Source of the DNA: a virus
IMG/VR virus record: IMGVR_UViG_3300037041_001083
Span: 1 to 64,000 of that record
DNA: 64,000 bases
Direction: 5' to 3' (one strand)
Under the pieces are notes generated by a model, which saw only the letters and a program-made list of their open reading frames with translations, did not search any database and had not been told where the DNA came from. The translations under genes were made by a program, and so were the position numbers. Below are positions 1,882 through 4,172 of the stretch, piece after piece; the stretch's first letter is position 1; each line of letters begins with the position of its first letter.

Positions 1882-2361
1882 CTATTTAATCATTCCAGCC
1901 TTTTGACGAGCACCAAACTCGTTATAGTAATACATTATCTCTTCAAAGCTAAACACCTCCTCCCAGTTGCATAATGGTACAAATATGTATCGCTGGTGTG
2001 ACGCTTGAACATTCCTCTCATCGTCCAGCATGTATCCTCGAAGCTTCACTGAATCAATCGTACAACAAAATCTCCTCGTTCTCGTTTGCATATCAACTTC
2101 AATACACACCACTTTAATCGTCGGTACTGCTCCCAATATTTCACTCGGTATCGACAATGTAAAACTATCCTTCTGTGTCGAAAATATCCTTTTTTGAAGG
2201 AATAATATTTCACGATCAATATTAAAACTGCCAATATAAATCGCCCTGTTTTCAGGCTGGCGTATCAATCTAATCAAATTCGTTTTCTCTATCCTGAAAT
2301 GTGACTCGCCATAGCTGGCTGGTACAATCATATCCTGCATAAAATGCTCCTTACTTTTCAT
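1882..2361 (-). CDS. Hypothetical protein
   Basis: 159-aa ORF with ATGA overlap to the primase-helicase. Confidence 0.7.
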   Translation of the reverse strand: MKSKEHFMQDMIVPASYGESHFRIEKTNLIRLIRQPENRAIYIGSFNIDREILFLQKRIFSTQKDSFTLSIPSEILGAVPTIKVVCIEVDMQTRTRRFCCTIDSVKLRGYMLDDERNVQASHQRYIFVPLCNWEEVFSFEEIMYYYNEFGARQKAGMIK

Positions 2362-4172
2362 TTTCTTGTGTTGAATAAACTTTTTGTTTCATTCATCGTT
2401 TTTATGCGTTCCATATGGCCTACATCAACCTCAATAGCTGTTTCTGTCTCTTTATCAAATCTATAATGCACACACTTACGCTTATTCATCCCTGCACCAC
2501 TTACAAACGCTCCCATCTTGCGGTTTTTACGCACTGTAAACTTCATATAATCACCACTTGGGTCGATGACGTAGATATTATCCGCATCTTGTGATAACTT
2601 CACCGAACCAAACAAATCATTTTCAGTCATTTCCTTACCAACGTCATACTTTTTCGGATGAGCGAGTAATGTTACTGCCACATGCTTATCTCGCTTAAAA
2701 TCACGCAATAAATCAATCACTTTATTTTGAATATCGAACTTCTCATTACCCATAATGCTACCGATCATGAACTGTAAATTGTCGATGATGATGTGACGGA
2801 CATCGAAAACTTCAACTGCATAATCCATAGCGTCGATCACGTCTTCCATTTTTGTAGCTGAGTGGAATTTCATAAACCAAAGCGGTAGCTGTTCGAGTTT
2901 ATCAAAGGTTTTATCGAAGTCTGATTGATCCTTGGTGAAGTTTTTTTTGCCAACTTGGTTGAGCATTTTTGATATTAGGTCTTCGTTTGGAATTTCAAAG
3001 GAACCCCATAGGGTGGCAACGCCTTGCTTGGCTAAGTCCATGCTCTGTTGTGAAATCAAAGTTGTTTTTCCAGATCCGGTTGGACCGGAAATGACGTTGA
3101 GTTCGCCCATGCGTAGTCCACCGATATGTTTTGTGAACTCTGGCATTGAGGTGATGGGTACACCGAGGTATGCGTTTTTGTCGGTTAGGTTGGCAAGGAT
3201 GATTTCTTTGTAGCTTGATGCAGTTACGATAGCATCGTGCTCGAACTGGGTGTCAGCGAGGAGGAAATTAGCCAAATCGTGGCCAGCCATTAAAGCATCG
3301 TTTGCGTCTTTGATATTTTCGCCTAATTGATGCCAGTCAATGTAGGTGCATTTTTTGATACCGAGTTTTTCAGCGAGTCTAGTTCTGCAATCGAGTCCTG
3401 CTGCATCGGAGTCAACGGCGATGATTACCCGTTTGAATTTCTGGAGGTAAGCGATTGTTGGGGCTGGGAAGGAACGTGAGCCGTTTGGGAGTGACACGAC
3501 TGGGAAGCCAGTTTCTTGGAAAATAGTCATAGCGTCAATTTCGCCTTCGGTGACAAAAACTTCCTCAACGGTATCGGGCACGAGGTGGCATCCAAATGGG
3601 ATGAGTTCTGCTCCTGCTGGTTCGATACGCATGTTGTGTTTTTTTTCAAGTGATCGTTGTTTAACGAATGAACATTCGGTGTCACTGAGCATGAATGGAA
3701 AGCTCATTGATTTCTCTATACGCCATGAGGCATCGTCCTGCTGATAGTTTGTATCAGCTTGGCCGATTTTGTATTGGAGCATTGTAGTAGTTTTAATCTT
3801 TCTGCTGGTTAAACAATCCCTGACATCGGAGTTAAAAGGCAAGGCATCGGTAAATTCTTGGAACACAGTATTTCGAGCATATTTCCTTGTTTTGATTGCA
3901 CCAATGGAAACGTTATTATCTCCGTAGTATGCTTTGAGGTCGTACCATGATCCTTGCCAGTTACAGCGATGGCATTTAAAAGCACCGCCATCCTTAGCGA
4001 TGTACAGTCTGTATTGGTTTGGTCGTTGGTCAGCGTGTTGAGTTGTTGCGTGGCAGTTAGGGCAATCCTTGCACTCTAGCTGATTGAATTTATCATTGAA
4101 CACTATGTTTTTACTGCGTAGGTAGGCAGTAATTTCGGGTAGTTCAATTTTTCTGAAAGGTTTTGCGGTCAT
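2358..4172 (-). CDS. Twinkle/T7 gp4-like primase-helicase
   Basis: Zn finger (CPNC...CHRC), TOPRIM ([23 protein letters not shown]), SF4 helicase ([28 protein letters not shown], KNR). Confidence 0.95.
   Translation of the reverse strand: [604 protein letters not shown]

Follow-up and report, generated by a model that had tools for sequence, protein, structure and literature searches.

A Twinkle-type primase-helicase encoded by an uncultured contractile-tailed phage and its relationship to the mitochondrial replicative helicase

We analyzed a 64,000-nucleotide stretch of viral DNA (the window; positions 1 to 64,000 of IMG/VR record IMGVR_UViG_3300037041_001083) in which a minus-strand open reading frame (ORF) encodes a primase-helicase related to the mitochondrial helicase Twinkle. 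Our analysis places this protein in one of two phage clades, A and B, which are the closest known relatives of mitochondrial Twinkle and lie outside the eukaryotes, either as sister group or as a grade. The source is a viral record of 79,995 bp, estimated to be 87% complete, with genes for tail sheath, baseplate proteins, tail fibres, a major head protein, a replication initiator, a single-stranded DNA-binding protein (SSB), and RecT. Since tail sheath, baseplate, tail fibres, and major head protein are all encoded, the source virus is an uncultured contractile-tailed phage (myovirus) of roughly 90 kb, in agreement with an earlier sequence-only reading of the window, which had named a myovirus and whose quoted motif strings are all present in the ORF at 2358-4172. 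The gene and its domains are as follows:

2358-4172, minus strand: Twinkle-type bifunctional primase-helicase of 604 amino acids (P0001), a single ORF with an ATG start
3963-4064, minus strand: zinc-binding domain with Cys4 ligands C37, C40, C67, and C70 (CPNC...CHRC), from alignment with T7 gp4
3285-3815, minus strand: Toprim primase (RNA-polymerase) domain, from Pfam and the T7 gp4 alignment
2505-3152, minus strand: SF4 (DnaB/gp4-type) helicase domain, from Pfam, structure matches, and the T7 gp4 alignment

The window protein matches Pfam Toprim_2 at residues 206-294, followed by AAA_25/DnaB_C at residues 341-542, and PHROG 239 ("DNA primase/helicase") covers it from end to end (E = 3.7e-72). 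Its catalytic residues were read from the alignment to T7 gp4, in which the zinc ligands C37/C40/C67/C70 correspond to T7 C17/C20/C36/C39, and the Toprim residues E209 (TEGEID), D254/D256 (DSD), and D289 (KDAND) correspond to T7 E157, D207/D209, and D237, respectively. Within the helicase domain, K369 of Walker A (GPTGSGKT), D464 of Walker B (IIIDN), and H505 of motif H3 correspond to T7 K318, D424, and H465; motif H1a reads TLWGSFE, and the H4 arginine finger R551 aligns with T7 R522. No SF4 helicase motif is disrupted, and the zinc finger and the acidic residues of Toprim are likewise intact; the primase motifs (Cys4 and Toprim acidic residues), which had already looked intact from the letters, do align with their T7 counterparts. 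Judging from these motifs, the window protein is apparently an active bifunctional primase-helicase, which presumably shares the ring-helicase and primase mechanism of T7 gp4. It is set apart from bacterial DnaB, of which it matches the DnaB_C domain only: its N-terminus consists of zinc finger and Toprim, and DnaB structures reach at most 20 bits.

Compared with eukaryotic Twinkle (TWNK/PEO1; structures 7t8b and 8e2l), the window protein has the same order of zinc finger, Toprim primase, linker, and SF4 helicase, with near-identical helicase motifs including HP[KR]K and SQ[DE]ADN. Its intact primase is a likeness to plant and protist Twinkle, whereas in fish Twinkle, included in that same alignment, neither the Cys ligands nor the acidic Toprim residues are retained; loss of the primase residues is a known trait of animal Twinkle. 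The Twinkle of the last common ancestor of eukaryotes (LECA) has been inferred to be bifunctional with an intact primase (PMC10557236). Unlike eukaryotic Twinkle in the strict sense, the window protein is phage-encoded, has no N-terminal targeting extension (the alignment begins at about residue 5), and falls outside the named eukaryotes. It also carries a clade-specific insertion of about nine residues after the arginine-finger motif, as well as a basic C-terminal tail that it has in common with a neighboring small ORF, and its partners are a phage initiator and a bacterial-type SSB.

With T7 gp4 and the primase-helicases of other Autographiviridae (PHROG 239; structures 1q57, 5ikn, and 6n7i), the window protein shares the bifunctional architecture and the catalytic residues. 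However, identity to T7 gp4 is only 25% (71-97 bits), the C-terminus is basic rather than acidic, and T7 is a 40-kb podovirus in contrast to the roughly 90-kb myovirus considered here. The acidic C-terminal tail of gp4, which the window protein lacks, binds the T7 DNA polymerase (family A). A second group of known proteins, the lambdoid and P22-like toprim-helicases (such as those of Salmonella phages epsilon34 and Oslo), resembles the window protein in that a primase-helicase fusion lies beside an initiator and the host polymerase is used. These proteins are among the nearer outgroups of our trees, but they have about 23% identity, and a long branch with full support lies between them and the Twinkle superclade. 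Mechanistically, the window protein is an ordinary gp4-type primase-helicase, and its interest is evolutionary.

Similarity searches place the window protein far nearer to Twinkle than to T7 gp4, as the sequence-only reading had proposed. Using phmmer against the PDB, human Twinkle (7t8b) scored 245 bits (E = 1.5e-71) and the Twinkle homologue structure 8e2l scored 237 bits (E = 2.9e-69), compared with 71 bits for T7 gp4 (E about 5e-19). BLASTP gave 353 bits for Phytophthora Twinkle (E = 5e-116) and 256 bits for fish Twinkle (E = 2e-80), compared with 97 bits for T7 gp4 (E = 2e-25). Among 5.8 billion proteins, the best matches were a handful of metagenomic proteins (57-69% identity), followed by a second tier of named eukaryotic Twinkles at 270-366 bits (Blastocystis, Phytophthora, Ectocarpus, a diatom, Glomeromycota, and Coemansia, with the sponge Amphimedon lower at 192 bits) and then by a sharp drop to below 80 bits for ordinary phage gp4-like proteins. 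Some of these relatives are labeled "twinkle protein" by the automatic annotation of the JGI. In GenBank phages (50,697 genomes), 1,885 matches were found, none of which reached 30% identity (maximum about 29%). Scanning about 185,000 GTDB species genomes for the motifs revealed no prokaryotic relative, and so gave no prophage or host clue. One further viral contig with a Twinkle-type relative was found among 2.9 million IMG/VR contigs, while viral contigs scanned with one protein at a time (the window protein, P0062, or P0067) gave no match.

The top named matches are stramenopiles (Blastocystis, Phytophthora, Ectocarpus, and diatoms, at 32-41% identity), as might be expected if the phage had recently recaptured Twinkle from a present-day eukaryote, for instance a stramenopile. 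However, identity to every eukaryotic Twinkle is only 30-41%, and stramenopiles rank high through an intact primase domain that gives full-length alignments. The phylogeny bears further on this possibility.

Searching 1.84 billion representatives exhaustively with HMMER, we recovered 337 proteins at E < 1e-30, and an overview tree of 255 rows was built with FastTree and rooted on T7 gp4, with eukaryote labels taken from source names. In this tree, 203 rows form a Twinkle superclade (support 99), in which three lineages are basal. The first, clade A, consists of L002 and P0084. The second, clade B, has eight members, namely the window protein, P0002, P0003, L082, P0004, P0005, P0061, and P0063. 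The third, with 193 rows, includes all named eukaryotes: labyrinthulids, an oomycete, a brown alga, a diatom, Ochromonas, Blastocystis, a ciliate, Pyropia, Cyanophora, and Picozoa, together with Gefionella, fungi, a sponge, and a fish. The origin of metagenomic contigs was judged by annotation of neighboring genes and by tblastn of shared genes; stop-to-stop coding density failed to separate eukaryotic from viral metagenomic contigs. Two unlabeled members of the eukaryote clade examined in this way have eukaryotic genes as neighbors, namely those for WD40, protein kinase, and FtsH-type protease proteins in L091 and Nrap in L101.

Two side observations concern these metagenomic rows. First, the Twinkle loci L143, L154, and L157 (GC content 25-31%), and likewise L083, L094, and L105 (low GC), have in-frame stops in an otherwise continuous match, a pattern suggesting eukaryotes in which stop codons have been reassigned (ciliate-type codes). 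Second, P0004 has an intein-like insert of about 300 amino acids that splits its Toprim motif (TEGE|C...N|CDAM; alignment columns 380-680), and P0014 has Hom_end/Hint intein Pfam matches upstream of its helicase domain; inteins are common in phage replication genes.

A more careful tree of 76 rows and 574 columns was inferred with IQ-TREE under the LG+C20+F+G4 model with posterior mean site frequencies (PMSF), with supports given as ultrafast bootstrap/SH-aLRT. The Twinkle superclade, comprising clade A, clade B, and the eukaryotic Twinkles to the exclusion of gp4-like phage proteins, received 100/100. The sequence-only reading had called for a homology search and a maximum-likelihood (ML) tree, and their outcome is that the window protein falls outside the ordinary gp4-like clades. 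Clade B (100/98) and clade A (100/100) were both recovered, as in the overview tree, clade A grouped with the eukaryote side (98/86), and the eukaryote side itself comprised 50 rows (92/93). Within it, a clan of 45 rows contains every named eukaryote (stramenopiles, ciliate, red alga, glaucophyte, Picozoa, malawimonad, fungi, and animals) and excludes the phages (99/92). Whatever the root, no particular eukaryotic lineage among those sampled can have been the source of a capture, given this 99/92 split, and since the phage clade lies outside that clan, a recent recapture appears extremely improbable.

It could also be asked whether the placement is a tree artefact, the window protein being an ordinary gp4-like phage protein whose likeness to Twinkle is convergent or compositional. 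Several rows do fail the composition test and the outgroup branches are long. Against this stand the three-fold gap in bit score between Twinkle and gp4, found in both pairwise and HMM comparisons, the hallmark motifs identical to those of Twinkle, and the full support of the superclade under a site-heterogeneous model. In addition, phages and eukaryotes have similar tip-to-node path lengths in the IQ-TREE phylogeny, a result that speaks against a simple artefact of long branches. We therefore give this explanation almost no credence.

Four metagenomic proteins deserve mention here. P0062, P0066, and P0067 (also P0068), of about 640 amino acids and without an N-terminal extension, are basal on the eukaryote side, and P0062 appears in the ESM Atlas as viral by sequence features and as an oomycete Twinkle by structure. 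These four may be further phage lineages even closer to eukaryotic Twinkle; a viral origin of P0062 and P0066/P0067 would strengthen the argument that the phages form a grade.

To place the root, a 16-taxon gp4-like outgroup was regrafted onto 64 ingroup branches under the same PMSF model, and the positions were compared by the approximately unbiased (AU) test. The ML position was on the clade B stem (log-likelihood difference, delta lnL, of 0; pAU = 0.95), followed by the clade A stem (delta lnL 5.5; pAU = 0.20) and the eukaryote stem, with phages monophyletic as sister group (delta lnL 6.7; pAU = 0.13). The remaining 61 positions had a delta lnL of at least 12.9 (pAU < 0.04), and any root inside the named-eukaryote clan cost at least 31 lnL units (pAU <= 0.016). 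This last figure includes attachment inside stramenopiles, a further point against recent recapture, within a scan that covers outgroup attachment points only. Seven nearer outgroups alone gave the same picture, with inside-eukaryote roots at pAU <= 0.018 and pSH <= 0.045 (Shimodaira-Hasegawa, SH, test), and eight T7-like outgroups alone again favored the same three junction branches. A root at the junction between phages and eukaryotes is favored, and roots inside the eukaryotes are rejected by the AU test with the full and the near outgroups. The sequence-only reading had offered two possibilities, that the phage belongs to the lineage of the mitochondrial helicase donor or that it recaptured the gene; the junction root and the 99/92 split favor the former, and the latter, as recent recapture from a sampled crown eukaryote, is excluded.

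The direction of an older transfer has to be weighed separately. A phage of the window family could have captured Twinkle from a stem or deep unsampled eukaryote, for example as a phage infecting a bacterium inside a protist, and then diversified into clades A and B. Such an ancient capture would fit the small size and rarity of the phage clades, with about 10 representatives compared with more than 190 eukaryotic ones, the absence of any relative in the roughly 185,000 prokaryotic species genomes, and the single further viral contig among the 2.9 million. It would also fit the rooting with T7-like outgroups alone, where the root is not resolved, and a single sister clade A+B, which is not rejected (pAU = 0.13) and is the topology also expected from one early capture. 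On the other hand, all outgroups are phage gp4-like proteins, so fewer transfers are required if the gene passed from phage to eukaryote; in the ML tree the phages form a grade, (B,(A,eukaryotes)), with 98/86; the AU test, as described, rejects inside-eukaryote roots with the full and the near outgroups; and the 99/92 split excludes an origin in any sampled crown lineage. Furthermore, the clade A and B helicases are 33% identical, whereas the capsids of their viruses are 67% identical, which indicates an old presence within phages. On this evidence, we regard ancient capture as unlikely, yet as an explanation that retains real weight.

It should be noted that several points weigh against the reading of the window protein as a functional enzyme from the phage lineage that donated Twinkle. 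With T7-like outgroups alone, inside-eukaryote roots cost 3-5 lnL units and are not rejected, and it is the near outgroups, with their long branches, on which the rooting signal depends. The AU scan kept a fixed ingroup topology, which is anti-conservative, and by the SH test with the full outgroup the best inside-eukaryote roots are not rejected (pSH = 0.16-0.2). Since monophyly of A+B is likewise not rejected (pAU = 0.13), phage paraphyly is not established; under this constraint, the best lnL reached was -69544.8, compared with -69536.8, in an incomplete search. The named tips are without Discoba, Amoebozoa, and land plants, and the three proteins basal on the eukaryote side, P0062, P0066, and P0067, are ambiguous in origin, either viral or eukaryotic. 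Phage context was verified for three of the 10 members of the "phage" clades (window, L082, and L002), the rest being metagenomic proteins, and the enzyme activity of the window protein is deduced from motifs only.

With these points taken into account, the donor-lineage reading is the most economical, because all outgroups are phage proteins and the phage clades form a grade or a sister group. We consider it quite probable that the window protein is a functional gp4/Twinkle-type replicative enzyme of the phage clade closest to Twinkle, most likely the same lineage as the donor before LECA. Taken by itself, the proposal that these phages are descendants of the lineage from which the proto-eukaryote received Twinkle is one towards which we lean. 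A more specific version, in which eukaryotic Twinkle is nested in phage helicase diversity with B and A as successive outgroups, and in which the donor was a polymerase-less, lambda-style myovirus and not a T7-like podovirus, has in our view a little better than an even chance of being correct.

The genes around the helicase form a replication module that is entirely encoded on the minus strand. Its features, with two further ORFs beyond it, are the following:

304-873, minus strand: bacterial-type SSB with the tail ...EDDCPF (PHROG 44, Pfam SSB; 37% identity to the L082 SSB)
1882-2361, minus strand: ORF of 159 amino acids whose ATG overlaps the helicase stop codon (ATGA); 46% identity to the ORF at the same position in L082
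2374-2402, no strand assigned: 29-nt direct repeat, copy 1, at the 3' end of the helicase gene (family D4)
4217-5941, minus strand: replication initiator, the upstream neighbor of the helicase in the same operon (PHROG 11233 and 6493 at residues 23-156)
5325-5540, no strand assigned: iteron-like direct repeats of families D1, D2, and D6 within the initiator gene, a putative lambda-type origin
5942-6247, minus strand: small ORF, part of the replication module
5958-5986, no strand assigned: 29-nt direct repeat, copy 2, at the 3' end of the ORF at 5942-6247, encoding KTMAETKSLF (family D4)
8026-10341, minus strand: two ORFs (8026-9303 and 9556-10341), with 31% identity over 369 amino acids and 44% over 78 amino acids to L002

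The N-terminus of the initiator has a DnaD-like/replication-initiation match, and no Pfam match was found for the initiator. The repeats at 5325-5540 are both tandem and dispersed, with ATAGGGCA...TATGGGGCA units in the initiator coding sequence, and this arrangement of initiator-embedded repeats resembles the O-type origin of phage lambda. The 159 amino acid ORF downstream of the helicase has no Pfam or PHROG match. The SSB tip EDDCPF is a variant of the bacterial acidic tip DDDIPF, which recruits host replication proteins, and is consistent with a phage that borrows the host replisome.

The two copies of the 29-nt repeat are 93% identical, lie 3,584 bp apart, and exactly bracket the initiator and helicase pair. 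They give the helicase and the ORF at 5942-6247 a common C-terminal peptide, KTM[N/A]ETKSLF..RK, in each case just before the start of the next gene. The repeat could mark a boundary of module exchange, or it could provide a shared tail for protein docking; the "SLF" of this tail is loosely like clamp-binding motifs.

No family A, B, or C DNA polymerase was detected in the window phage or in its relative G001, a complete genome of 91.6 kb with terminal repeats. Neither was a T7-type RNA polymerase detected in these two phages, a weak negative, as the model used (PF00940) matched none of its control genomes either. Because none of these polymerases was detected, the two are not T7-like phages and presumably use the host replicase. 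Regarding the host, a TnpB-type IS605 OrfB gene is encoded at 10467-11474 on the plus strand (Pfam OrfB_IS605 and a Cas12f1-like TNB domain), and its best chromosomal relatives, at 48-58% identity, are in a Cytophagales metagenome-assembled genome, Hymenobacter, Runella, and Spirosoma (Cytophagales), a weak hint that may point to a Bacteroidota host. No DNA match to a cultured relative was found among GenBank phages, where the best capsid-protein match has 29% identity.

Two relatives provide a comparison of the module. The metagenomic contig L082 has the same gene order as the window, with identities of 50% for the helicase, 46% for the downstream ORF, and 37% for the SSB. G001 includes the IMG/VR contig L002, which encodes a full-length Twinkle-type protein with 33% identity to the window protein (E = 4e-96), and its counterparts of the ORFs at 8026-9303 and 9556-10341 sit upstream of its helicase. 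The capsid (L204) and sheath (L202/L203) proteins of G001 are 67% and 56-64% identical, respectively, to those of the window phage, yet the helicases of the two phages fall in different clades and are far more divergent than the structural proteins, which suggests that the replication module was replaced within one virus family. Because the clade A and B helicases have diverged to this extent while the capsids have not, the Twinkle-type lineage appears to be old and diversified within this phage gene pool. In total, the 2.9 million IMG/VR contigs include six of the window virus family; the five other fragments, found via the capsid protein, end short of the replication module.

Based on these features, replication in the window phage would begin with binding of the upstream initiator to the iterons within its own gene. 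The primase-helicase ring would then assemble on single-stranded DNA and unwind in the 5'->3' direction through NTP hydrolysis in the SF4 domain, the zinc finger and Toprim domain would synthesize RNA primers, and the phage SSB would cover the displaced strand. Extension of the primers would fall to the host replicase, because no DNA polymerase gene was detected. On the evolutionary side, a phage lineage of this kind would have donated Twinkle before LECA, and clades A and B would descend from that same lineage.

In textbooks and the current literature, Twinkle is described as "T7 gp4-like", as of phage origin, or as a relative or derivative of T-odd phages (PMC12230644, PMC7883662, and PMC3610141), while a phylogenetic study describes its origin as "still unknown" (PMC3914683). 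Our search of the literature on Twinkle-like phage, metagenomic, or viral sister proteins found no description of such a phage clade; the likeness to Twinkle has apparently been seen by annotation pipelines but not interpreted.

With 30-41% identity to eukaryotic Twinkle, compared with only about 25% between T7 gp4 and Twinkle-type proteins, the phage clade described here provides a concrete candidate for the phage lineage from which Twinkle came. The window protein, a small, probably soluble, and by prediction primase-active orthologue, could also be a tractable model for the structure and function of Twinkle, which could include disease-mutation positions in the conserved helicase core. Since these phages are myoviruses without a detected T7-type RNA polymerase or family A polymerase, the type of phage that was the source of Twinkle may differ from that of POLRMT. 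If the donor was indeed a polymerase-less myovirus, the origin of Twinkle would be uncoupled from those of Pol gamma and the mitochondrial RNA polymerase. It thus becomes testable which phage was the donor of the replicative helicase of mitochondria, and whether the three "phage-type" mitochondrial enzymes arrived together.

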